From: a virus
Taxonomy: Duplodnaviria > Caudoviricetes
Reading direction: 5' to 3' (one strand)
IMG/VR virus record: IMGVR_UViG_3300030372_003848
Span: 1 to 36,178 of that record
DNA: 36,178 nt
The translations under genes and the position numbers were made by a program. The notes beneath the pieces are model-generated. The model searched no databases. It had not been told where the DNA came from and worked only from the letters and a program-made list of their open reading frames with translations. Of the stretch, positions 6,739 to 32,278 are shown piece by piece. Each line of letters opens with the position of its first letter. The first letter of the stretch is position 1.

Positions 6739-6906
6739 ATGCAAACTTTCGCAAATATAATGGCTGTCATTATGCTCATCGTCACAGTATGCAGTGTAGT
6801 TTCAATGATAACCCCTACTCCAAAGCTCGATACGCTTGTCGGTAAGATTTACAAATACACGATTGAGCTGGGCGCACTTAACTTTTGGAAGGCAAAAGAT
6901 AAATAG
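6739..6906 (+). CDS. Small holin-like membrane protein (55 aa, absent from the ORF track)
   Basis: GAGGA RBS; MQTFANIMAVIMLIVTVCSVVSMITPTPKLDTLVGKIYKYTIELGALNFWKAKDK, one TM helix and a basic tail. Confidence 0.7.
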   Translation: MQTFANIMAVIMLIVTVCSVVSMITPTPKLDTLVGKIYKYTIELGALNFWKAKDK

Positions 6907-8258
6907 TGTCATTTTTTGGCGACATACCCGATGAGCTGATATACAGCAACGAGCTTGTTGATCCACCAGTCAGCGATACGATTGGTGGATTGCCCCTTTT
7001 GGGTGCGGGTATCGCTGGCATTTACACGCCGTCAAGAAAACTGGGTCAAGCAAACAACCCTGGGCAACAAGTTGTCACAAGTGGCCCGATACAAGTCACC
7101 AAAGCTCAAAAAAGAGATGCAAGAACTATAAAGAATAAAAACAATCTTGGTGCGGGCGATGTGTTTGTTGATCGAGGCACAGGCATTGTCTGGAAAGTAA
7201 ATGACAACGGCAAAGGCATTAAAGCATTAGGCAGCAGCGATCAAAGCCCAGTTGAGTTTGCAATAGGCGATCGTGTTTTTATTCAAAGCGGAACCATCAC
7301 TGATAGCGATGGAAATGTAATTGATGAGCATCAATCAGGTTGGGCAATTTACAATCCACAAGAAGATTTGCCTGGTGATCCTTGGGAGTTTGAAACAACA
7401 ACAACGGATGAAGAGACACCAGTTGACATACCGCTTTTTCCATCAATCATTGACGACAGCGGTACTGTTATAACGCCACCAATTATTACAACGCCACCCC
7501 CTACTCCACCTGTCATTACAACGCCACCCCCTACTCCACCTGTCATTACACCACCTGTTATTGATACACCACCTATACCGCCTGTTATTGATACACCACC
7601 GATTGTCATTGACACACCGCCCGTAATTGATGAGCCGCCAGTTATTACAACGCCACCACCATCTCCGCCTGTAACTCCGACTCCAACTCCGACTCCAACT
7701 CCTGTTGTGCCAACGCCAACTCCTGTAGTGCCTACACCTACTCCAACTCCTACACCTACTCCAACCCCTACACCAACGCCAACTCCTACACCAACGCCAA
7801 CGCCCACTCCAACTCCAACTGGCACAGGTGATACTGGAACGGGCGATACTGATGACGGCACAACCGATGATGTCGGTGTCGGCATTGGCGATACTGTTGG
7901 CATAGGAACGGGCGCGGGAGTTCTCGATGGAGACAGCACACCTTTTGTGCCAGTCGATTACAATCCATTCACTATACAAAACCCCGTCTTTGAGCCGAGA
8001 GATTTTATTGCACCAGGCGTTTCATATTCGCCAGAAGTGCCAGAGGGTTATACGGTGTTTGACGATGTGTATACGCCTTATGTTTACGACCCACCCCCTG
8101 TGCAACAAATGAGTGGGCCACCATTGATATATGATCCATTCGCGCCTTTGCCTTCAATGGCTGAATCGATTACTTCATTGCCACAAATGCCAAGCGGTTA
8201 TCAACCGCTGAATTTAGGCAACCTACAATCAATCATTAATAAAATAGGAAACACATGA
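6906..8258 (+). CDS. Pro/Thr-rich low-complexity protein
   Basis: 450 aa, GTG start overlapping the upstream stop, stop overlapping the next ATG; TPPVI and (TP)n tracts. Confidence 0.7.
   Translation: MSFFGDIPDELIYSNELVDPPVSDTIGGLPLLGAGIAGIYTPSRKLGQANNPGQQVVTSGPIQVTKAQKRDARTIKNKNNLGAGDVFVDRGTGIVWKVNDNGKGIKALGSSDQSPVEFAIGDRVFIQSGTITDSDGNVIDEHQSGWAIYNPQEDLPGDPWEFETTTTDEETPVDIPLFPSIIDDSGTVITPPIITTPPPTPPVITTPPPTPPVITPPVIDTPPIPPVIDTPPIVIDTPPVIDEPPVITTPPPSPPVTPTPTPTPTPVVPTPTPVVPTPTPTPTPTPTPTPTPTPTPTPTPTPTPTGTGDTGTGDTDDGTTDDVGVGIGDTVGIGTGAGVLDGDSTPFVPVDYNPFTIQNPVFEPRDFIAPGVSYSPEVPEGYTVFDDVYTPYVYDPPPVQQMSGPPLIYDPFAPLPSMAESITSLPQMPSGYQPLNLGNLQSIINKIGNT
7485..7820 (+). repeat. Coding tandem repeats (30-bp unit x2, then a (Pro-Thr)n tract)
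   Basis: attacaacgccaccccctactccacctgtc at 7485-7514 and 7515-7544; CCN-ACN run about 7672-7820. Confidence 0.85.
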
Positions 8259-9625: not shown

Positions 9626-10809
9626 ATGGCCAAAGTGACCAATGCTTAGTATCTTGAGCATTTAAAACACCGTGAATTGCTGGGAAGCCCTAACGGATAA
9701 GACGAGGGTAATCAGCAGCCAAGACAAGCAGAAATGTTTGTAAGGTTCAGAGACTAGGTTATGGAGTCCTAACGAATAAGACGAGGATGGTAAAAGCCCA
9801 AGAGCGCGGTGCAACTCTTAGAGTTGATGATATAGTCCAATCTTATAAGAAACTATAAGAAGTCATCCATAAACAGTTTGACGATAATAATAATGTCGAT
9901 ACCTATACTGCTACTGCTGACAGAGAGGCTTTGAGTGATCTGATCTATAACATTTCACCAATGTCAACTCCTGTCATGTCAGCTATTGGCCGTAATTCGG
10001 TAAAGAATGTACAATTTGATTGGCAAACTGAAGCATTACCCTCAGCATCCGCTACTGGACAGCTAGAGGGTTTTGAGCTTTCAAGAACAGCAGCGACCGC
10101 TACTGTAAGAGAAAGCAACATTTGTCAAATCTCAAGCAGAGATGCAACTGTGACAGGTTCACAGCAAGCATCAGACCCCGCTGGTAAGAAATCAGAAATG
10201 GCTCACCAACTCGCAATCATGGCAAAAGCCCTGAAACGCGACATGGAGAAAACCATTTGTGGAAACACTGCCAAAAACGCGGGCAACGCAACCACAGCAA
10301 GGCAAACGGGTGGCTTTGAAACTTGGATTGAAACCAATGTTTCCAGAGGCACAAACGGGGCTGGTGCTGGTAATGGTGCTGCACCTACAGATGGCACACA
10401 AAGAGCGTTCACAGAAACCATTTTGAAAGACGTACAACAACTTTGTTTTGACAACGGCGGCGAACCAACTATGTTGGTTGTCGGTTCTCACGTCAAAGGC
10501 GTTGTGTCTGGTTTCACTGGACGAGCTTCTGCTAGGCAAATGATCGATGCAACAGCGATCGAAGCTAGCGTGAGTGTGTATTCTGGAGACTTTGGTGAGT
10601 TGAAGGTAATGCCTTCTAACTTCAGCAGAGGCAGAACAGCACTGTTCATCGATCCTGATTTTGCAAAAGTTTCATATCTCAGAGATTTTGAAACTGTTGA
10701 CATTTCAACAATCGGTGATGCTCAAACTAAAATGTTGATAGTCGAGTACGGACTAGAGTGTTCTAATGAGAAAGCTCATGGTCTGGCTGCTGACTTATCT
10801 ACATCGTAA
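9626..10809 (+). CDS. Major capsid protein (DUF5309/SU10-like), spliced join(9626..9647,9896..10809), 311 aa
   Basis: AAGGAG RBS then ATG 9626 (MAKVTNA); removing 9648-9895 restores MAKVTNAFDTYTATADREALSDLIYNISP in frame with the 9931-10809 ORF; FDWQTE.L and KALKRDME motifs. Confidence 0.9.
9648..9895 (+). ncRNA. Group I self-splicing intron (248 nt, no ORF) in the major capsid gene
   Basis: P GAATTGCTGGGAA, Q AATCAGCAGCC, R GTTCAGAGACTA (9745-9756), S GATGATATAGTCC; P1 AAUGCUU/GAGCAUU with U9647-G9656 wobble; P3 9668-9674/9805-9811; P8 9812-9826; terminal G9895; P10 GUAUC/GAUAC. Confidence 0.93.
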
Positions 10810-21370: not shown

Positions 21371-21628
21371 TTATTCAAAATTATTTAGAATATCTATTAT
21401 TTTCAGATAGCCCTGAATGTCGTCTTGGGTGTCAACTTTGTCTGGCTTGTTATACAAACGCACTGATTTAAATAGCACCATCATCGTTGCTGCTTGTTCG
21501 GGTGTAATGTCCACATCAAGCACCCCACTCCACACTCTCGCCAACTGGCGAAAGAACCGCATTGGATGTCCGTATTCGAGTCCTTTTTTATGTATCAGCT
21601 CATCGACTTGAAATTCATTTTGAATCAT
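21371..21628 (-). CDS. DUF6378-like small phage protein
   Basis: YGHP...F..LA..WS..L...ITPEQ...MM...K..R..D...DI.GY pattern. Confidence 0.65.
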   Translation of the reverse strand: MIQNEFQVDELIHKKGLEYGHPMRFFRQLARVWSGVLDVDITPEQAATMMVLFKSVRLYNKPDKVDTQDDIQGYLKIIDILNNFE

Positions 21629-22074
21629 TACGCTTCCTCATTAAACAAATCGGCTTCTGCTTGTCTGCGCCTGGTTAATCCTTCCAGCTCTGTCAGCTCA
21701 CCTTTGACTCTGGCTTTGTTCCAACGCTTCATTTGATAAGGCACTTCATCGTACTTTTCTTCGTTTAATTTTTTCAAAAGGGTACTCTTAGAAAACGCAC
21801 TGGGTCCGATGTTGTAAATTAGACTGACAAGCGCTGAGTTTTGATTAGCATTTAAAGGAACACTCACTAAATCATCAATGTATTGCTCATACTCTCTGAG
21901 TTCTTTATCAAGCATTGCAGTCGCAAATTGTTCAGTGATTGAATCGCCTTCTTTAACGCCCTTGGTATGCCCATAGCCAATCGTGAGTACATCGGCAGCA
22001 TCTCGATAAGCGTTGGTTTCTAATCCTTCAAATTGTTTTATGAGGTTGAGTCCTCTGTTGTTGATTTTGGTCAT
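21628..22074 (-). CDS. Endolysin, GH24 lysozyme
   Basis: FEGLETNAYRDAADVLTIGYGHT (E-x8-D-x5-T) and GLTRRRQAE; GGAG RBS before ATG 22074. Confidence 0.92.
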   Translation of the reverse strand: MTKINNRGLNLIKQFEGLETNAYRDAADVLTIGYGHTKGVKEGDSITEQFATAMLDKELREYEQYIDDLVSVPLNANQNSALVSLIYNIGPSAFSKSTLLKKLNEEKYDEVPYQMKRWNKARVKGELTELEGLTRRRQAEADLFNEEA

Positions 22075-22830: not shown

Positions 22831-23051
22831 TCTTTACCGCCTATTCGTATCTGACCATTCAGATCAAAATGAATCTTGCCCATCTTTGCCAAAAACTGTA
22901 AGCGCGGATAAACTGCACCGCGACTCATGCCCATCTCTTTAGCAATCTGATGTTGGGTTGGGGTAAAGCTATATCGCTTATAAAGTTTCTTAATCACTTT
23001 GAGTGTTTCAATGGCGTTTTTTTGTCGCCTGTTTTCAATCGATGTCTTCAT
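22827..23051 (-). CDS. LexA-type winged-helix DNA-binding protein (no peptidase domain)
   Basis: AAGGAG RBS; FTPTQHQIAKEMGMSRGAVYPRLQFLAKMGKI; 74 aa. Confidence 0.75.
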   Translation of the reverse strand: MKTSIENRRQKNAIETLKVIKKLYKRYSFTPTQHQIAKEMGMSRGAVYPRLQFLAKMGKIHFDLNGQIRIGGKE

Positions 23052-24012
23052 TTTGAATCTCCTTGATTGTGAGGGTTTTGTTTCGCACAACACGCGCTTC
23101 TGTGGCGGGTATGACTTTGGTGACTTCTGGCTTTGCTTTGTATCGCCTAGAACCCCATTTGATCTGAAACTGGCCCGTGACTGCATGATCGTTCTCTTGC
23201 ATAAGTGTTTTGATCTCAGTCTCTCTGTCATCAATGATTTGTTTTGCGTTCTCAATAATTCGCTTTGAGGCTTGTATGTCCTCAACCTTCATTGCGATCT
23301 CGTCTGGAAGCTCAACCAATTTATCCACCGACTCTGACCAAATGATATTGGCATCGATGCTGTTCTCTGGCTCAAAATATTTGCGAGTCTTTATGCGTTC
23401 ATCAAAATCAGTCACGATTTCTTCCAACCACGAACTGAACTCAGGGTCACGTTCGTAAACGTAAACCCTAAGATCAGTCGAAGCATACAAGACCACAACA
23501 GCGCACCAGTCTAATCCAGCGCATTCCATAAGCCCCTGAGCTTGGAATTTGCCTCGCCAGTCTGGGAGATCATCGTCTCCATAGTCTCTTGTGGTCTTGG
23601 CTTCTAGGATGCCATCACCAGTCAAACGCAGTTCTTTATTATTTGAGGTAAATATGTTTTGCGTTGTATCGGTTTTGACAACCAAGGGGGATTCATCGCC
23701 TACCGTTGCCGTTGCGATGCCATCGGGCGATCCAGCAAGCGGTAGTGTTTTGTGTATTAGAGGCTCATCGATGTCGAGCTGTGGGTTTGTTAAACCGAGT
23801 CTAAGACATGCTTCCTCTAAGATTGGATTCTCCAGGACATCGCCCACTCTCATAAAGAGAGGTTGCTTATCGTCTCGGACATTCTCAAATCGTGCTGCCC
23901 TGATACAGCGATCAAGCAACTCGTTCTTGGTTAGGCCATAAGGGTAGTTAGGATCAAATACCGCTAGACCAGAACACGAGAGCTGATAATCAGGTGTGAC
24001 TTTACCGACCAT
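23035..24012 (-). CDS. YqaJ / lambda-exonuclease-like recombination nuclease
   Basis: GGAG RBS; GDVLE, AGSPDGI, ILEAKTT, Q.QGLM motifs. Confidence 0.8.
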   Translation of the reverse strand: MVGKVTPDYQLSCSGLAVFDPNYPYGLTKNELLDRCIRAARFENVRDDKQPLFMRVGDVLENPILEEACLRLGLTNPQLDIDEPLIHKTLPLAGSPDGIATATVGDESPLVVKTDTTQNIFTSNNKELRLTGDGILEAKTTRDYGDDDLPDWRGKFQAQGLMECAGLDWCAVVVLYASTDLRVYVYERDPEFSSWLEEIVTDFDERIKTRKYFEPENSIDANIIWSESVDKLVELPDEIAMKVEDIQASKRIIENAKQIIDDRETEIKTLMQENDHAVTGQFQIKWGSRRYKAKPEVTKVIPATEARVVRNKTLTIKEIQNEDID

Positions 24013-24244
24013 ATCTGCTGACTCCCATTGCATCTTCAATGTCCTCAACAGACCAAGTAGTCATGACTCGATTCCAGTTTTTATCTTGGAAGTCGAAATA
24101 ATTTACATAGGTCAAACCAATGTGATCGCCCTGATCGATCCTTCGATACGATTCAATACAATCCACAGGTATCTTGAGACAACCTTTTATTCGTGGCACA
24201 TATGGGTTAATGTATTTAGGCTTAGATGTTGCATGTTGGTACAT
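24002..24244 (-). CDS. Hypothetical protein (80 aa)
   Basis: AGGAG RBS before ATG 24244. Confidence 0.6.
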   Translation of the reverse strand: MYQHATSKPKYINPYVPRIKGCLKIPVDCIESYRRIDQGDHIGLTYVNYFDFQDKNWNRVMTTWSVEDIEDAMGVSRYGR

Positions 24245-24526: not shown

Positions 24527-24820
24527 TCACTCGGCATCCCTAGTTGATCGGCGTTCCCGAAGGGTTAAACGGGCATGATCCAATATGCGCTGGGCAATGG
24601 CTGCCTTCATTGACATGCGAAGCTCGGCGCGTTTGATGGCCTTTAATTCATCCAATACGTCTTTGAATACATCGATGGCATCATCGAGGTCGTCACTGGT
24701 CAGCATTGGGATTTCAAGTCTCTTTGTACCCCACCCAAAATAATCGAGGTGATACACCTCTTGGTCTTTTGTGTTGGTGGTGGGTAGAGTCATGCCTGTT
24801 TTGTTCTCCTGTTTTTTCAT
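24527..24820 (-). CDS. Hypothetical protein (alternative start 24793)
   Basis: AGGTG upstream of 24820; AGGAG upstream of 24793. Confidence 0.6.
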   Translation of the reverse strand: MKKQENKTGMTLPTTNTKDQEVYHLDYFGWGTKRLEIPMLTSDDLDDAIDVFKDVLDELKAIKRAELRMSMKAAIAQRILDHARLTLRERRSTRDAE

Positions 24821-24863: not shown

Positions 24864-24917
24864 AAATACTGATAATAAATGGTGATAATAAATGGTGATA
24901 ATAAATTATCAGTATTT
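24864..24917. repeat. Three direct repeats (13-bp period) inside a perfect 13-bp inverted repeat
   Basis: tgataataaat at 24870, 24883, 24896; aaatactgataat (24864-24876) / attatcagtattt (24905-24917). Confidence 0.85.
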
Positions 24918-24933: not shown

Positions 24934-25611
24934 TCAATAATTCTGATTGGCATCACGAATGAAGCCCCTTATGCGTTCGTCAAACTGATCGGGGTCTGTG
25001 CCTTGCCATCCAATGTAATGAAACAGCCAGTCGTTCTCGGCTGTGGACCATGCGCCCTCAGAAAAGTCATTGAGATCGGCTCGATCCAATCCGAATTGTC
25101 GCATGTTCCAAAGCACCCAATCTTTGATGTGTTCTTCGCTGTAAACATAATGCTTGGCACGATTGTCAATGACCTTTGTAAATTTATTATAAACACCCGT
25201 CCTTTTTCTAATGAGTCCTTTGTTGAGGTGTTTCTTCAAAATCTTCCGAACCGAATGGATGGTGTATTCGCCTTTGCCTTTCACTCTTTCCACCGATGAG
25301 AGAATGTCGGTTTCGGTGGTTTGTTGGTTGGCAATGCAGCGAATCAAGATGATGGCTAAAATGTATCGATCGGGTGGATTCGAAGATTCATTGATTGCAT
25401 CACTAAAATTGGATGACAATGATTCCAATCTTGAAGATCGCAGTGCAGACAGAAACAAAATGGTCACACCCAAACACATTACAAAGGTGTCAAATGTTTC
25501 GAAATTAATCGTGCAGTTCTTCCAAGCCTTTTTAAAGAAAAGGCTGTGATCGGGGTCTAATTCTCGTGGGAACTCTAAATACTGAAATCCGCCTTCTTTT
25601 ACTTCTCTCAT
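24934..25611 (-). CDS. Hypothetical protein, possible winged helix
   Basis: GGAG RBS; SVRKILKKHLNKGLIRK..DNRAK resembles a MarR-type wing. Confidence 0.55.
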   Translation of the reverse strand: MREVKEGGFQYLEFPRELDPDHSLFFKKAWKNCTINFETFDTFVMCLGVTILFLSALRSSRLESLSSNFSDAINESSNPPDRYILAIILIRCIANQQTTETDILSSVERVKGKGEYTIHSVRKILKKHLNKGLIRKRTGVYNKFTKVIDNRAKHYVYSEEHIKDWVLWNMRQFGLDRADLNDFSEGAWSTAENDWLFHYIGWQGTDPDQFDERIRGFIRDANQNY

Positions 25612-26324
25612 GACAACTCCTTTATTTTCAACAATAGATTCCTGACGTTTGATGGATGCCAGGTTCTTCCATAGCGTGATTTGATGCCCTCGGCATTGAG
25701 TCGGTTGGCAATGTCCTGATAGGTGTTTGCCCCACTCTTTTGAATCTTCTTCACCACAGGGCGCATCGTGACCGCAAAGTCATTGGCTCGTCTGGTGTGA
25801 TCTTCCGAGGCTTTTTGGGTGGCTTCCTTGATGTTTGGATTGCCAAACTTCATGCCTTTGGCTTTCAGCTTTGCCATTGCTTTCTTCGTGTTGCGAGAAA
25901 TCTTTTTGCGATTCTGTGCCACGATGTTTGCCATCATGTCCATCGGAATCCAATGAACACCCCAAATGTCGAGTGCTGCAAATTTCAGGCCATACTTGTT
26001 GTATGCCTCTAACATCAGGCTCACAAACTTCAAGTTGTTGATCCTAGAACCGAGCTTTGGACTCAATATATTGGCTTTGTTTCTGACTGCATATTTAATT
26101 GCCAATTCAAGCTGTGGCATGTGATAAGGATTCCTCGATTTCTCTTCGATGTATTCCTTTAATATGTGTCGTGTCTTGCCCTTATCACGAAGGGGTGGAT
26201 CGGTCGCTTCCTTGAGCTGGATGCGTTTCTTGTCGATGTCATCGTCACTGATGTGGTAGGTCACGAACCGAGTGGTGCGCCCTACTTTCACCTTGCCGAC
26301 ATCTGCAAAATCATCTTTTGTCAT
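25608..26324 (-). CDS. Serine recombinase/resolvase-like protein with degenerate catalytic motifs
   Basis: ISRNTKKAM...KAKG.KFGNP and YQDIANRLNAEGIKSRYGRTWHPSNVRNLL; YxRVS and DRLxR motifs altered. Confidence 0.75.
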   Translation of the reverse strand: MTKDDFADVGKVKVGRTTRFVTYHISDDDIDKKRIQLKEATDPPLRDKGKTRHILKEYIEEKSRNPYHMPQLELAIKYAVRNKANILSPKLGSRINNLKFVSLMLEAYNKYGLKFAALDIWGVHWIPMDMMANIVAQNRKKISRNTKKAMAKLKAKGMKFGNPNIKEATQKASEDHTRRANDFAVTMRPVVKKIQKSGANTYQDIANRLNAEGIKSRYGRTWHPSNVRNLLLKIKELS

Positions 26325-26333
26325 ATTGTTCTC

Positions 26334-27182
26334 CTATGATGATTGTATTGAATTAAAAATCTCGTTGCCAACATCGTTCACATTCTGCTTGGCAGTCTCA
26401 TCCATGACATGTGCATAACGCATAGTCGTCTTTGGACTTTTATGCCCTAGAAGGTTGCCTATTTCAACAAGGCTCACTTTCTTAGAACGCAGGGCAAATG
26501 TTGCAAACGAATGTCTGAGGTCGTGTAAACGAAGATCGGGTACACCCGCCTCTTCCCTTACTTGCAACCAAAACTTATCGGGGTATTTGCTTTGCATCAT
26601 TGAACTGCCTTTGCGTTCTAGGTGGTTCACAATCTGCATCGCTTGATCGTTTAGATGGATCACACGATCACCATCTTTGTCATCGGTCTTGTGTTCCCTT
26701 AAAACGATTCTGTTGCCTTCTAGGTCATCCCATTTGGCAGATGCCAACTCACCTTTGCGACAACCTGTGTAGATTAAAAGCATGATGAAATCGATGTGTT
26801 TCTGATTGTCTTTTGTGCGTTTGCGATTGAGTACATCAAAGATGCGTTTCATTTCATCTTCATTGCAATATCTTTTGCGTTTTAAGTCTGGATGTCGCTT
26901 GATAAAGGTGCATGGGTTCTGCTCGACCATCTCGTATCGCATGGCAATATCAAATGTGCATTTCAATATCGTGAGACATCGATTGGCGATACCATTGCCA
27001 CTTTTGCTTACCTCATAGAACCAATCGTTGATCTGATCGTGCTTGATGCGTTTGATGTTCTTATCGCCTATTGAGTCTTTGATGTGTCTCAACCATATTC
27101 GTTCCATGGAAGATACGGTTTTCTTCTCACGGCGATTGAGGTCGCACACATAAAGCTCGAAGGCTTTATTGAGGGTTTCCAT
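26334..27182 (-). CDS. int: Tyrosine integrase/recombinase
   Basis: YTGCRKGE, HDLRHSFAT, LLGHKS, MRYAH give the R-HxxR-H-Y catalytic set. Confidence 0.93.
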   Translation of the reverse strand: METLNKAFELYVCDLNRREKKTVSSMERIWLRHIKDSIGDKNIKRIKHDQINDWFYEVSKSGNGIANRCLTILKCTFDIAMRYEMVEQNPCTFIKRHPDLKRKRYCNEDEMKRIFDVLNRKRTKDNQKHIDFIMLLIYTGCRKGELASAKWDDLEGNRIVLREHKTDDKDGDRVIHLNDQAMQIVNHLERKGSSMMQSKYPDKFWLQVREEAGVPDLRLHDLRHSFATFALRSKKVSLVEIGNLLGHKSPKTTMRYAHVMDETAKQNVNDVGNEIFNSIQSS

Positions 27183-27202
27183 TTCGTTCTCCTATATAAA
27201 AC

Positions 27203-27466
27203 TTAATTAGGTATCACGCCTACAGCATGAACACTCTTGTTTCTTTGTTTGGCAATCAAATCTGCATAATACTGTTTGTCATTCCTTGTAAGTGTTCGCT
27301 CATCAGAGCTTGTCATTTCTCCTGATATAAAAGAACACATTTGCTCGAATATCTCTTTGTCGCTTAGTCCTTTTTCTATTAACCTTGCTATATTCTTCTT
27401 TGCAGATTTTTCTTTATTTTGTGGGTTTAGTCTTATTAATTCTTCCCAATGTTTTGTTTGTTCCAT
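27203..27466 (-). CDS. Hypothetical protein
   Basis: ATAGGAGAACGAA leader; 87 aa. Confidence 0.7.
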   Translation of the reverse strand: MEQTKHWEELIRLNPQNKEKSAKKNIARLIEKGLSDKEIFEQMCSFISGEMTSSDERTLTRNDKQYYADLIAKQRNKSVHAVGVIPN

Positions 27467-27492
27467 TTCGTTCTCCTATAAAAAAGGCAGCC

Positions 27493-28221
27493 TTAATTGG
27501 CTGCCCTGTTGTTTGTTTGGTGTTCTTCGATTAGATTCAATGCTCCGTTTTTTGCTTCTTTCCAAGAAAAGACTCTGTATTCCCATGGATCAAGAGTTTC
27601 TATTTCGGGATCGTTTTTGTCATAGACTTCAATAATCAACTCGTTCTCAAACCAATCATCGTGGTAAATGTGCAACCAATCGTGTTCCTCTGTCAACATC
27701 TGACATCTTTGTTTGGGTGAAATCCTTTTCTTCTTAGGTTTCTCAACCTCAACGATTGCGATTTCTGGAACAGCCTCAAAAGGTTTATGCCTTCTGCTGA
27801 GTTTATGTTTTCTTTTCCATTCATCAAAACAATCGTGGCTAACTCTAAACTGATACATTGTTTGGCACAGTTCATCGATGCTTGGTTGTTTGGGATGAAA
27901 GATGTTAAGAAGATTACAATAGGCTGAAACAAATTGACGACCATGTAAATCATCTGTTAAGAGATGTGCGTATTCATGAAGTATCACTCCATAGTTCATA
28001 CTCCATCTTTTTCTCAGGTGTATCTCAGACCTACCTTCGACAAAAGAACAGCCATGACCATCTTTAAATTTAATTTTAGTATTTCTTTTAAAGATTTTAT
28101 CTAATCTTTTGATAATTAATCTCACTTGTTGCTCGGTAAGATAACTGATTTTAGTCATCCATGATTGAGAATTTTCCCAGTCATATACTCGCTTTCTTTG
28201 AAAGTCTCTTACCTCAGTCAT
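27493..28221 (-). CDS. HEXXH zincin-like protein (SprT/WLM-like)
   Basis: VILHEYAHLL...HGRQF; ATAGGAGAACGAA leader. Confidence 0.7.
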   Translation of the reverse strand: MTEVRDFQRKRVYDWENSQSWMTKISYLTEQQVRLIIKRLDKIFKRNTKIKFKDGHGCSFVEGRSEIHLRKRWSMNYGVILHEYAHLLTDDLHGRQFVSAYCNLLNIFHPKQPSIDELCQTMYQFRVSHDCFDEWKRKHKLSRRHKPFEAVPEIAIVEVEKPKKKRISPKQRCQMLTEEHDWLHIYHDDWFENELIIEVYDKNDPEIETLDPWEYRVFSWKEAKNGALNLIEEHQTNNRAAN

Positions 28222-28271
28222 TTCGTTCTCCTATGTATTTTTTATGTATAAGTATTGTTCTATTTCTATTG

Positions 28272-28299
28272 ACTATATAGACATATATAGAAATTACAA
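28272..28299 (-). promoter_or_regulatory. Putative leftward sigma70 promoter in the divergent control region
   Basis: TTGTAA-16 nt-TATAGT on the minus strand, overlapped by ctatatag/tatatag repeats. Confidence 0.4.
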
Positions 28300-28333
28300 G
28301 TACTATTGGGTCATCTTTTTCAAGTTGTAAATT

Positions 28334-28498
28334 ATGAAAAAACCACAATACAAAGCACTATGGGTTGATCCAGAGCTACACGCTCAAATCCTTTGTCTAG
28401 CGGACTTTCAGAGGCGCAGCATTAAAAATGTAGTGGAAAGCATACTCAAAATAGCAATCAGAGAAGAAGCCGAGAAAATTGAAAACGGTGAAAAATAA
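28334..28498 (+). CDS. Ribbon-helix-helix-like regulator (54 aa, absent from the ORF track)
   Basis: MKKPQYKALWVDPELHAQILCLADFQRRSIKNVVESILKIAI..; first rightward gene; no clear RBS. Confidence 0.6.
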   Translation: MKKPQYKALWVDPELHAQILCLADFQRRSIKNVVESILKIAIREEAEKIENGEK

Positions 28499-28522
28499 TA
28501 GCAAAAGATAGGAGATTTGCGC

Positions 28523-28957
28523 ATGTCAAAGAAGAGTAGAACGAAGGGCCATAACTTTGAAAGAGAAGTTGCGCTCATTCTAAACGAGGCTTTTTACATG
28601 GCAGATTTACCCATCAAAGTACAACGTGATTTAGCACAATATCAGGAAAGAGACCGAGGCGATCTCGTTGGTCTCGAGGACTATGGTTTTGTCATTGAGT
28701 GCAAACGATATGCCAAAGGCAATAAACCCCTCACCGCTTGGTGGGATCAGGTCACGAAAGCTGCCGATTATCAAAATGCCATCCCCCTACTCATCTACCG
28801 ATTTGATCGACAACAATCAGAAGTGCAATTCCCATTGATGATGTTCATCACAGAAAGAGAGCATCAACCTGAGTTCAACGAATATTTTGTACGCATGGAT
28901 TTCGATAAATTCTTGCACCCATTCATCTCTTATTTAAAGGCGAAACATGAGCAGTGA
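28523..28957 (+). CDS. Hjc-like Holliday junction resolvase (PD-(D/E)XK)
   Basis: SRTKGHNFEREVA..GDL..IECKR; AGGAG RBS. Confidence 0.75.
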   Translation: MSKKSRTKGHNFEREVALILNEAFYMADLPIKVQRDLAQYQERDRGDLVGLEDYGFVIECKRYAKGNKPLTAWWDQVTKAADYQNAIPLLIYRFDRQQSEVQFPLMMFITEREHQPEFNEYFVRMDFDKFLHPFISYLKAKHEQ

Positions 28958-29225: not shown

Positions 29226-29807
29226 ATGAGCTTATTAGGACTAAACGATGCAGCAGATGACAAGCTGTTCATCCGATATATGCCATCTACTAATGGATGG
29301 TTTGTCGGCAAAGAAGATGAAGTGGATTTGAAATACTTTATCTTAAACCCAAGTTCTGTGAAAACAGGATGGGGCAAAATCACAAAAGGAGAAGCCCCTG
29401 ATTGGGTGTTTGATGAAGCCCTTGGTAAAAGAGCGATTCGACCAGGTGACACAGAAGAAGAGAAAATGAACTACAAACGTGGTTTCTCTGTGGACATGTT
29501 TATCCAGGAGGAAGGGCTTAGAACATGGTCAACCACAACCACTGGATCAAACATTGGTTTTGAGAACGTCTACACCGAGATACATGCCAAACAAGCAGAG
29601 AACGTGGGCAAGTTTCCCGTGATCGAATATACGGGTTCTGAGGCGATCAAAATAGGCAAAGGCAATACACGAGTGCCTCAGTTTACTTTGGTCAAATGGG
29701 TCGAGTCGGATGAGTTCGAGAAGAATGAACCGAACGGTGCATACGAAGAGCCTAGCTTTGATGAGCCAGTGGCAGAAGATAACCCCCAAGACGATATACC
29801 GTTCTAG
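29226..29807 (+). CDS. Putative ssDNA-binding protein
   Basis: TAAGGAG RBS; acidic tail ending DDIPF (SSB C-terminal motif); replication context. Confidence 0.65.
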   Translation: MSLLGLNDAADDKLFIRYMPSTNGWFVGKEDEVDLKYFILNPSSVKTGWGKITKGEAPDWVFDEALGKRAIRPGDTEEEKMNYKRGFSVDMFIQEEGLRTWSTTTTGSNIGFENVYTEIHAKQAENVGKFPVIEYTGSEAIKIGKGNTRVPQFTLVKWVESDEFEKNEPNGAYEEPSFDEPVAEDNPQDDIPF

Positions 29808-29826
29808 ACAATATCGTCACCCAAAA

Positions 29827-29867
29827 GGCTAGGGTGGGTTTGTTCTCCTATCTTCCCACCCTAGACC
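29827..29867 (+). promoter_or_regulatory. Hairpin with an anti-Shine-Dalgarno loop
   Basis: Perfect stem ctagggtggg/cccaccctag; loop tttgttctcctatctt; no U-tract. Confidence 0.6.
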
Positions 29868-29880
29868 TATAGGAGATAAC

Positions 29881-30495
29881 ATGATTGAAATCAGATACGC
29901 AGATAAAAACGACTTGGTTTTTATTGATTATTTACAAAAAAAGAACGCAGAAGATTTATCTTTTTATCCTAAAGTAGTTTTTGAAAGAGAGGTTGAAAAC
30001 AAAAGATTGCTATTAGCCTTAGTCAACAAACAACACGCTGGATACTTATATCATGGAAGCATTGAGGTTTATAAACCAATAAAAATTCATCAAGCCTGTA
30101 TCGAATATGATCTGAGGGGTAATTGGTATGGGGCTGGTTTGGTTGGAACATTAGAGGACATTGGAAAGTTAATCAACGCACAAGGCATATCATTGCGTTG
30201 CGGTTCTGATATTGCAGCAAATAGTTTTTGGAAATTGATGGGTTTTAAGTGCATTGATATACAACCAGGCGGTATAAGGAGAATGAGAGACATCAATGTT
30301 TGGTTCAAGCAGATAACAGAGGATATGTTTGGGGATGAGATTGACAACAGTTTAGCAATCGAGCCAAGCACCAAGAAAAAAGACTCAAGTTATTGGAGAA
30401 AGCGAGGAGAAAACAAATCACAAAGCAGTATGTTGAGAGGGGATGCGCTGTTGAAATACAGGGAAGAAATACTGAAGGAAGCAGAACATGATTGA
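29881..30495 (+). CDS. GNAT-family acetyltransferase
   Basis: IHQACIEYDLRGNWYGAGLV (acetyl-CoA-binding motif A variant) and ANSFWKLMGF. Confidence 0.75.
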   Translation: MIEIRYADKNDLVFIDYLQKKNAEDLSFYPKVVFEREVENKRLLLALVNKQHAGYLYHGSIEVYKPIKIHQACIEYDLRGNWYGAGLVGTLEDIGKLINAQGISLRCGSDIAANSFWKLMGFKCIDIQPGGIRRMRDINVWFKQITEDMFGDEIDNSLAIEPSTKKKDSSYWRKRGENKSQSSMLRGDALLKYREEILKEAEHD

Positions 30496-32278
30496 AATCA
30501 GTCAATACAGCAAAGAGATCGCTCTGGCCCTACTCGGCGAGGAGAACAAGCGACTCAGCAGTGCTTATGAGCTGAGATACGGCAACAAGGGCAGCTTGTC
30601 GGTCGATCTCAACAAAGGCACTTGGTTCGACCACGAAGCCGATGAAGGCGGTGGCATGATCAGTTTTATAAAGAAATATCACGGCGAGGATGTAAGCCAG
30701 TTTTTAAGGTCGATGGGCATCGAGGATTTGCAACCCGTATCGGTGACAGCACAACCAGAAAAGCCCACAAAGAGTTACAGCAATGACGAGATGCGCAACA
30801 TGGCGAAGAAAGCCGAGTTGGTGTCTCGTTATTCAGACACGTTCTGTGTCATGCGTTTTCCAGGCAAGGTCATACGACCGTTCAGCCGATTGGACGATGG
30901 CACATGGCAAATGAAACGCCCCAAGGGGCAACTTCCATTGCTGATCTCAAGCGAGGGCGATGAGAGTTTGCCCTGTTTGATCGTTGAGGGAGAGCAAGCA
31001 GCACTTGGTGCTAGAGCATTGTACGAGGGCATTGTGGTCACATGGCACGGTGGCACGGGCAGTTGGAACAATCAAGATTGGTCACAGCTCAAACGCTTTC
31101 CCAAAGCGATTATATGGCCCGATAACGATGAGGCGGGATTTGAGGTTGCCAAGTCGATCAAAGACGAGCTGAAAACACACGGCATTGACACGGTGATCAT
31201 TGAACCGCCTGAACACTTCCAGCCCAAAGACGACCTCATGGATGCGTTTGAGCGCGAAGAGCCGATCAATGTGATTGAGTTGGCAGATGCGCGTGCGATG
31301 GATAGAGGTAAACGAGTTATTTACAGTCATTATGGAGATTTCAAAGACAAAGAATATCCTCAGATGGTGTGGGTGATCGAGAACCTTATGGCAAGAGGTC
31401 ATTTGTCCATGATTCATGGCAGTCCTGGACACGGAAAGAGTTTAATTACACAGATCATGGCTGTTTGCTTGGCTGCTGGTTATGACTTTGGACACTATCG
31501 CATTGAGAAGCCACAAAAGGTTTTGTTGGTCGATGCAGAGATGCCACCTGTGAGCTTACAAGAGCGATTTGCAGACATGATGATTATTTTTAATGGCGAG
31601 GTTGAAAGAGATGAACTGATTAAACGAGTCAATCAAAACTTGGTCATTGTCAGTCATCACGATCAACCAGAGGGATTGATTCCACTCAATACCGATGATG
31701 GCAGAGAGTGGTATTACAACCTGATCGATGATGTCGATCCAGACTTCATTATTCTCGATAATTTATTAACGCTGATGCAATTTGAGGACTCAAACAGTTC
31801 TGAAGAATGGGTCAGAGAGGTCAATCCCCTACTCCTTAAAATGAGGCAACAAGATCGTTCCGTGTGGTTTGTGCATCACTCAGGTAAATCAGGCAAACAA
31901 CTCGGCAGCATGGCAAAAGAGGTCATATTGGATTGTGTCGTCAGAATTGAGCTGCAAGGCATCGATGAAGAGGACGATGACAGCATGCTTGGATTGGACA
32001 CCAATCTGCAAGAGTCTAAGTTCAAATGGACATTCGAGAAAACCAGACATTTTTACGGCCAACATGCTTTCCCTGTGCTGTGGAAATACAGCAATGGAAT
32101 ATTAACCAAAGACCTCACTGACAAAGAAATGAGGACTCAAATGGTTGCAAAAATGAAGATTGAGGGCTTGAGCAACAAGGAAATTGCCAAAGAGTTTAAA
32201 ATAAACGAGAGAACCGTAAGACGAGACCTCAAATCGGCTGAAAGCCTTGGATTTATTGACAATGAGCCTGAATTTTAG
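30488..32278 (+). CDS. Primase-helicase (Toprim + AAA_25/RepA-like + C-terminal HTH)
   Basis: IVEGE and WPDNDEAG Toprim motifs; GSPGHGKS Walker A; IILDN; VHHSGK; SNKEIAKEFKINERTVRRDL HTH. Confidence 0.88.
   Translation: MIEISQYSKEIALALLGEENKRLSSAYELRYGNKGSLSVDLNKGTWFDHEADEGGGMISFIKKYHGEDVSQFLRSMGIEDLQPVSVTAQPEKPTKSYSNDEMRNMAKKAELVSRYSDTFCVMRFPGKVIRPFSRLDDGTWQMKRPKGQLPLLISSEGDESLPCLIVEGEQAALGARALYEGIVVTWHGGTGSWNNQDWSQLKRFPKAIIWPDNDEAGFEVAKSIKDELKTHGIDTVIIEPPEHFQPKDDLMDAFEREEPINVIELADARAMDRGKRVIYSHYGDFKDKEYPQMVWVIENLMARGHLSMIHGSPGHGKSLITQIMAVCLAAGYDFGHYRIEKPQKVLLVDAEMPPVSLQERFADMMIIFNGEVERDELIKRVNQNLVIVSHHDQPEGLIPLNTDDGREWYYNLIDDVDPDFIILDNLLTLMQFEDSNSSEEWVREVNPLLLKMRQQDRSVWFVHHSGKSGKQLGSMAKEVILDCVVRIELQGIDEEDDDSMLGLDTNLQESKFKWTFEKTRHFYGQHAFPVLWKYSNGILTKDLTDKEMRTQMVAKMKIEGLSNKEIAKEFKINERTVRRDLKSAESLGFIDNEPEF

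Follow-up and report, generated by a model that had tools for sequence, protein, structure and literature searches.

The c4 RNA of phages P1 and P7 is cut from a longer transcript and controls phage genes through short pairing between a loop and its target, and the preQ1 and SAM-II/V riboswitches are H-type pseudoknots that sequester a Shine-Dalgarno (SD) sequence. In those parts of the review literature that are openly accessible, phage antisense RNAs mostly control one phage gene. The CI RNA of phage P4, according to the accessible portion of one source, targets seqA/seqC in its own transcript and brings about termination, for immunity (PMC4825925). In Cluster K mycobacteriophages, a 13-bp extended ribosome-binding site (RBS) termed SAS precedes 11-19 non-structural genes, and four K1 phages carry one reverse copy that lacks a start and to which the available sections of the report assign no role (PMC3203893). 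SAS elements were described in 2011, and their function is still called unresolved in the accessible text of papers from 2024 and 2025 (PMC11373665, PMC12699233). Our literature searches, whose reach excluded most subscription papers, found no published phage system with an anti-RBS loop. The element described here is most likely regulatory, and would represent phage antisense control directed at a shared RBS.

The window is the whole stretch of DNA that was analysed, 36,178 nucleotides in length, and represents a complete phage genome with a 99-base terminal repeat, classed as direct terminal repeats. The portal and capsid of this phage are of the SU10 type, and the sequencing runs that contain it are of marine DNA. 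Its primase and portal matches among cultured phages are all below 60% identity, and no tRNA was found in the window. Among the virion genes, a 450-amino-acid protein with long Pro/Thr repeats is encoded at 6906-8258 (plus strand). A Group I intron (RF00028, 86 bits) without a long open reading frame inside it lies at about 9647-9900 on the same strand and seems to split the major capsid gene near its 5′ end, the ATG at 9626 standing behind GAAGGAG and the coding sequence resuming near 9900.

Transcription diverges at about 28,250-28,330. Leftward, on the minus strand, lie two variable-cassette genes without a family match (27493-28221 and 27203-27466), a tyrosine integrase (26334-27182; PF00589, 1.1e-20), a serine-recombinase/invertase-like gene with weak matches (25608-26324; 6e-5 to 3e-6), small genes, a RecE-like exonuclease with a family match and an uncertain start (23035-24033), an HTH gene and, near the end of the arm, an endolysin with family matches (21628-22074). 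The first leftward protein (27493-28221) carries a HEYAH motif, which we take to resemble that of HEXXH metalloproteases, and an AT-rich gap of the same arm holds three tandem copies of TGATAATAAAT (24869-24910) that could form a binding or attachment site. Rightward, on the plus strand, a likely ribbon-helix-helix (RHH) repressor gene at the divergence point (28334-28498; feature score 0.93 with RHH_1/Arc clusters, a lead without an alignment) is followed by a RusA-like Holliday-junction resolvase (28523-28957; phrog_244, 2.9e-21), an SSB-like gene (29226-29807), the hairpin studied here, a GNAT-like acetyltransferase gene (29881-30495) and a Toprim primase/AAA_25 helicase with family matches (30488-32278). 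The SSB assignment is putative and derives from the position of the gene before the primase and the acidic tail of its product. This protein gave no Pfam or PHROG match and no cultured relative was found; its top structural matches are weak (Z 5.2 and below) and include several OB-fold proteins. The first 14 bases of the GNAT gene (29881-29894) are those of the primase gene (30488-30501).

Downstream of the SSB-like gene, the plus strand can form an RNA hairpin (29827-29867) in which the arms CTAGGGTGGG (29829-29838) and CCCACCCTAG (29855-29864) pair perfectly over 10 bp, with a GG/CC extension around a bulged A, and enclose the 16-nt loop UUUGUUCUCCUAUCUU (29839-29854). Folding of the 111-nt hairpin region gives z = -4.0, with none of 200 shuffles equally stable, which bears out the stem and exposed loop (29829-29864) reported in the preliminary description of this DNA. 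The loop is predicted to be open, at an opening cost of about 0.6 kcal/mol for a segment shifted by one base, as are the target leaders (0.7-3.0 kcal/mol). A further 8-bp helix upstream, around the SSB-like stop codon (29790-29818), is present in group A relatives (defined below) and weak in group B. The observation that a terminator U-tract is absent holds as well: the next eight bases, ACCTATAG, include two T, the terminator scan of the window does not list the site, and the 16-nt loop is at odds with the short loop and U-tract of intrinsic terminators. No Rfam match was found at the hairpin (E <= 5; gathering score) or in five related loci. A preQ1 or SAM-II/V riboswitch was considered and set aside, given the lack of an Rfam match and the wholesale replacement of stem and loop sequences between lineages. 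The gene after the hairpin had been put forward as a partner in cis, and its RBS (ATAGGAGA, 29869-29876) does pair with the loop over 8 bp. However, this GNAT gene is an insertion, and the usual neighbour is the primase-helicase, which lies directly 3′ of the hairpin in 16 of the 26 other loci with a primase match; the slot otherwise holds an inserted gene that differs between relatives.

The loop is complementary to leaders on both arms. On the minus strand, these are the shared leader ATAGGAGAACGAA of the first leftward gene (28222-28234), which is also the joint for alternative cassettes, its counterparts before the second leftward gene (27467-27479) and the integrase gene (27183-27195), the leader ATAGGAGAACAA of the serine-recombinase-like gene (26326-26337) and the leader AGGAGAACAAA (24800-24810) of a gene at 24527-24793. 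The loop pairs over 13 bp (12 Watson-Crick and one G-U) with the first three, over 12 perfect bp with the fourth and over 11 bp with the fifth, in agreement with the pairings listed earlier. On the plus strand, the leader AAGATAGGAGA of the RusA-like resolvase gene (28505-28515) forms 11 perfect bp with the loop. The leftward leaders match the 5′ 13 bases of the loop and the resolvase leader matches the 3′ 11, so that each loop base is partnered in one class or the other. When the loop was scanned against the whole genome on both strands (RNAduplex plus opening energies), the four best partners were the four leftward leaders (-17.7 to -17.1 kcal/mol), followed by three non-leader sites (-16.6 to -16.3) and then the resolvase leader (-16.1), so that the leftward leaders lead the best non-leader site by only 0.5 kcal/mol. 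Among 49 scored start regions, a set that leaves out the capsid start, the top six (11-13 bp) are the five leftward leaders and the resolvase leader, and the 21 structural-gene starts form at most 6 Watson-Crick pairs with the loop. The ranking of leaders thus agrees with the preliminary description for the leftward genes, but the resolvase leader, on the rightward transcript, had been missed.

Several null models bear on how far this fit could arise by chance. The sequence GTTCTCCTAT occurs five times in the window (26328, 27186, 27470, 28225 and 29842), on one strand only, where 0.03 copies are expected and none of 100 shuffles reaches five; since the leader copies are one motif and not five independent events, this statistic overstates the case. 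With the CUCCU core of the loop fixed and its flanks shuffled, at least 12 Watson-Crick pairs to one named leftward leader arose in 190 of 50,000 shuffles, the fit to the resolvase leader in 284 of 50,000, and at least 12 pairs to a leftward leader together with at least 11 to the resolvase leader in 46 of 50,000, the targets having been chosen post hoc. Against any of 19 early leaders, core-fixed shuffling gives p = 0.049. The complementarity by itself is therefore suggestive, not decisive. The claim that it extends beyond the SD core stands insofar as 7-8 bases past CUCCU are matched in groups A and B, and is tempered by the p value over the 19 leaders. Pattern searches among other phages gave little: a first hairpin scan returned 82 stretches, mostly chance, and a leader scan that spanned about one eighth of the collection gave 80 loci with flanks (fragments of at most 20 kb), in which none of the eight unrelated viral fragments with two or more leaders carried a matching hairpin.

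Relatives of the locus were drawn from scans of viral, metagenome and bacterial collections. Throughout a clade of SSB-like proteins that are 43-96% identical, a large-loop hairpin is always present in the slot between the SSB-like gene and the primase. We distinguish 17 hairpins in 40 rows, which fall into eight groups (A-H); distinct hairpins were counted instead of rows because several loci are the same contig found twice or in two collections. The window's own genome (L308, 99.98%) was left out of the counts, and another locus of the clade (L313) stops short of the slot. The clade rows (n = 32) form one group in the tree, with low support (82/88). Among the more distant relatives listed, the slot mostly holds a short-loop hairpin with a U-tract, which is to say an ordinary terminator. 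Hairpins with small anti-SD-like loops also follow the SSB-like gene in four loci with 24-49% SSB identity (L421, 2142-2200; L425, 1091-1160; L324; L334), and in the first two of these the loop is complementary to the downstream leader.

Within the clade, the stems of groups C-H show no sequence relationship with those of groups A and B, and a UC-rich anti-SD core is kept in the large loop of seven of the eight lineages, the exception being H. Groups A and B share 12 identical loop bases, against 31-45% identity at the four-fold sites of three flanking genes; at 0.4 per site, 12 shared bases would arise by chance about twice in 100,000. The sequence GTTCTCCTA is kept in seven of the eight distinct A/B hairpins, and one stem (L386) carries a compensated change. 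Since the A/B alignment shifts the 5′ arm of group B by one column, stems were counted directly. Internal wobbles across the 17 distinct hairpins, some of them common to related hairpins, read as G-U on the plus strand in 12 cases and as A-C in one. This bias suggests that the hairpin forms in the rightward transcript, the strand on which its loop is antisense to the leaders. In the tree, groups D and E, whose hairpins differ, fall between A and B, and hairpin exchange between lineages may therefore have occurred. We regard the element as real and conserved, and most likely regulatory.

The co-variation of loop and RBS among related phages, proposed as a check in the preliminary description, is found in part. 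Loops and leaders fit in A and B, and the changes in C are concerted; against this, loop and leader do not evolve in lock-step over the clade and F departs from the pattern. In the longest-helix test (3,000 loop shuffles), A and B alone among the six lineages that could be tested do better than shuffled loops (best-leader p 0.011-0.016), and C, F, G and H are not significant (p 0.17-0.71); by energy (150 shuffles), group G stands out with z -3.4. Leaders with AGGAGAAC occur in four groups (A, B, F and G); neither C nor H has them. The loop matches them fully in A and B and over 7 bases in G, and among the lineages with enough flank, which leaves aside D and E, the GUUCUCCU loop is never seen without AGGAGAAC leaders. 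Group C uses a UCCUGUUU / AAACAGGA pairing, to which its loop core, resolvase leader and primase leader have all moved; this looks compensatory but on its own does not reach significance (p 0.55). For the loop of group B, the leaders of group A are better partners (-18.7) than those of B itself (-16.8), which argues against co-variation between these two groups. In two loci (L386 and L378) the resolvase leader has changed and the loop did not follow.

Group F is a clear counter-example: each locus has two or three AGGAGAAC leaders, yet the loop does not fit them. An F cassette and an A cassette are 97% identical in protein and agree at 26 of 26 four-fold sites, despite SSB-like proteins that are only 47% identical, and some F leaders may consequently be recent imports. 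In two F genomes, the best target of the phage's own loop is the first leftward gene, paired at the SD plus AUG in two segments. On the minus strand, the F loop carries in order an SD, a spacer, ATG and TAA (L379, L380, L382 and L383); interpretation as a minigene was dropped, since this arrangement is missing from A, C and G.

The leaders themselves appear to be mobile. In four independent DNA studies, contigs are interrupted at or near 28218-28219, a position just within the start codon of the first leftward gene, and differ beyond it, which indicates that the leader doubles as a cassette joint. This role alone would keep the copies alike. A terminator-like hairpin with a U-tract (27484-27507, minus strand) runs straight into the shared leader of the second leftward gene, and this unit recurs in groups A and F. 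One locus (L386, 4200-5500) carries an array of six leftward cassettes with near-identical leaders, and one cassette of this array is common, almost unchanged, to the distant group F (L379, 7041-7283).

In our judgment it is roughly an even call that the hairpin loop acts as an antisense RNA that binds the shared early-gene leaders and damps their translation as replication mRNA accumulates. No internal promoter was found, for which reason the element would be transcribed within the rightward replication mRNA; a promoter scan of the window was uninformative, with 29 sites against 31 expected. At a site where a terminator stands in more distant relatives, the element could then persist, either because it protects the 3′ end of the SSB-like message or as a processed piece of that message. 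Because wrapping beyond one helical turn would be difficult for a closed 16-nt loop, pairing in trans over the SD sequence and spacer would probably involve 8-11 bp at once. The outcome would be a hand-over from early to replication functions, with negative feedback on the element's own operon (resolvase and primase slot); reduced integrase output would be one consequence and not the main purpose. These properties, namely transcription, stability, binding and repression, are inferred from sequence. The earlier proposal of an RNA element that silences leftward genes is retained to the extent that the hairpin is read on the plus strand, its loop appears to be under selection and the leftward leaders are its best partners, although there are rightward targets too. 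If this antisense reading is true, a regulon could consist of RNA alone, with one loop addressing a gene set via a shared ribosome-binding sequence, and a newly acquired cassette would enter it simply through the leader that it inherits.

Action in cis is an unlikely alternative. Here the loop would form a pseudoknot with the downstream RBS and lower expression of the primase, or of the inserted gene, relative to SSB, in place of the terminator found in the outgroup. Such pairing spans 8-9 bp in group A and 8 bp in three other cases, namely group C (with changes that are compensatory), part of group F (with a single bulge) and the distant locus L421; the UCCUA/UAGGA match is invariant in all 13 A/B rows. 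One loop change (L309) would create a mismatch with the leftward leader and improves the cis pair. Yet cis pairing reaches only 5 bp in B and no more than 5 in G or H, and D and E show no evident pairing of this kind. It leaves the conserved 5′ UUUGU of the loop unexplained, and in group A it requires 4 nt to span the 10-bp stem, which on general grounds is sterically tight.

We give a small chance to the loop being a generic anti-SD module, comparable to the cuckoo RNAs discussed below, that acts on host mRNAs or on strong RBSs at large, with a fit to phage leaders that is partly incidental. The UC-rich core is retained in seven of eight lineages even where no phage target is evident, the exact complement of the F loop (SD, spacer and AUG) was found only at the hairpin in the records searched, with one site at two mismatches, and nulls for such low-complexity sequence are lenient (the p of 0.049 above). 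A generic module would not account for a fit in A and B that runs 7-8 bases past the CUCCU core and is confined to early genes, nor for the choice of flank, given that AAC follows AGGAG in just 4 of 155 start-like sites of the outgroup loci.

The preliminary description favored an RNA-based lysis/lysogeny switch, with the RNA taking the role of CI by silencing an integration operon; this reading now seems improbable. The integrase leader is among the best targets in group A, where it forms 13 bp with its own loop, and 7-8 bp are kept in B, C and G; moreover, no CI family match was obtained among the proteins scanned, as had been noted. The leftward arm, however, does not hold up as a lysogeny operon, because variable cassettes, the RecE-like exonuclease, the HTH gene and the endolysin lie there as well. 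Rightward genes are targeted too, a likely RHH repressor sits at the divergence point, and one scan of bacterial genomes yielded no prophage of the clade (two distant matches). With lytic genes on the leftward arm and targets on both arms, the switch is the weaker reading. Finally, there is a slim chance that the hairpin involves no RNA-RNA pairing, being instead an mRNA stabiliser or processing signal, a captured leader copy, a minus-strand protein decoy or a DNA element, for it occupies the outgroup terminator position and leaders that move between lineages as recombination joints could land a copy there, but conservation of the loop sequence itself stands out against neutral sites that are near saturation, and the wobble bias favors the plus strand, on which the loop is antisense, contrary to a sense decoy or DNA hairpin.

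The antisense reading can be placed among described RNAs by what is paired and where. Like P4 CI, the element would be a phage RNA cut from a longer transcript that acts by short loop-target pairing, as far as the accessible text on P4 allows comparison (PMC4825925). It differs from P4 CI and P1 c4 in that the loop targets are many SD regions on two divergent transcripts, and it has no Rfam match. OppZ and CarZ of Vibrio cholerae resemble it as mRNA-derived RNAs that pair with an RBS of their own operon and provide negative feedback; the available portion of that work describes them as RNase E products from operon 3′ ends that target one operon (PMC7398697). Own-operon complementarity is found here as well, over 11 bp with 28505-28515 and 8 bp with 29869-29876. 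Unlike OppZ and CarZ, the window element is intercistronic, has no U-tract (groups A-B) and has targets on the opposite arm. The cuckoo RNAs of Alphaproteobacteria likewise combine variable stems with a conserved anti-SD loop, and are described, in the text at hand, as having two to four hairpins with CCUCCUCCC (PMC4615179). The window element is a single hairpin with a larger loop matched to a phage-specific leader, and CCUCCUCCC occurs in none of the 17 loops.

The SAS elements of Cluster K share with this locus an extended RBS that reaches beyond the 16S-pairing core, is repeated before non-structural genes and has one reverse copy (PMC3203893, in its accessible part). In the window, SAS-type leaders amount to four exact copies and one near copy, with none at the 21 structural-gene starts, and they are kept in groups A, B, F and G. 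Compared with the Cluster K consensus, ATAGGAG is common and both flanks differ. The sequence, host and phage family are others, the SAS papers propose no antisense partner in the sections available, and the window element lies in the SSB-primase gap, unlike the reverse SAS of Cluster K. We found that the reverse SAS forms the loop of a long hairpin in four of eight Cluster K phages examined, all K1: Anaya (JF704106, 59,870), Angelica, Adephagia (JF704105, about 58,685) and SgtBeansprout. The hairpin region matches 128 records, many of them near-identical. Niklas keeps the anti-SAS loop sequence with a different predicted best fold, Amgine and SirPhilip keep the stem without the anti-SAS loop, and Pixie has no reverse-SAS hairpin in 25,000-61,147. 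The Adephagia hairpin occupies the interval between genes 92 and 93; the accessible text of a study of this cultured phage, with published RNA-seq, places the onset of late transcription there (PMC11373665). We tentatively propose, as a possibility that we would put somewhat below an even chance, that unrelated phages have repeatedly evolved a private extended RBS for early genes together with a complementary hairpin loop in a later transcript that shuts the set off. The marine clade and Cluster K1 would be two instances, and the reverse SAS would be the missing partner. The K1 layout also makes the function of SAS testable in a cultured phage.
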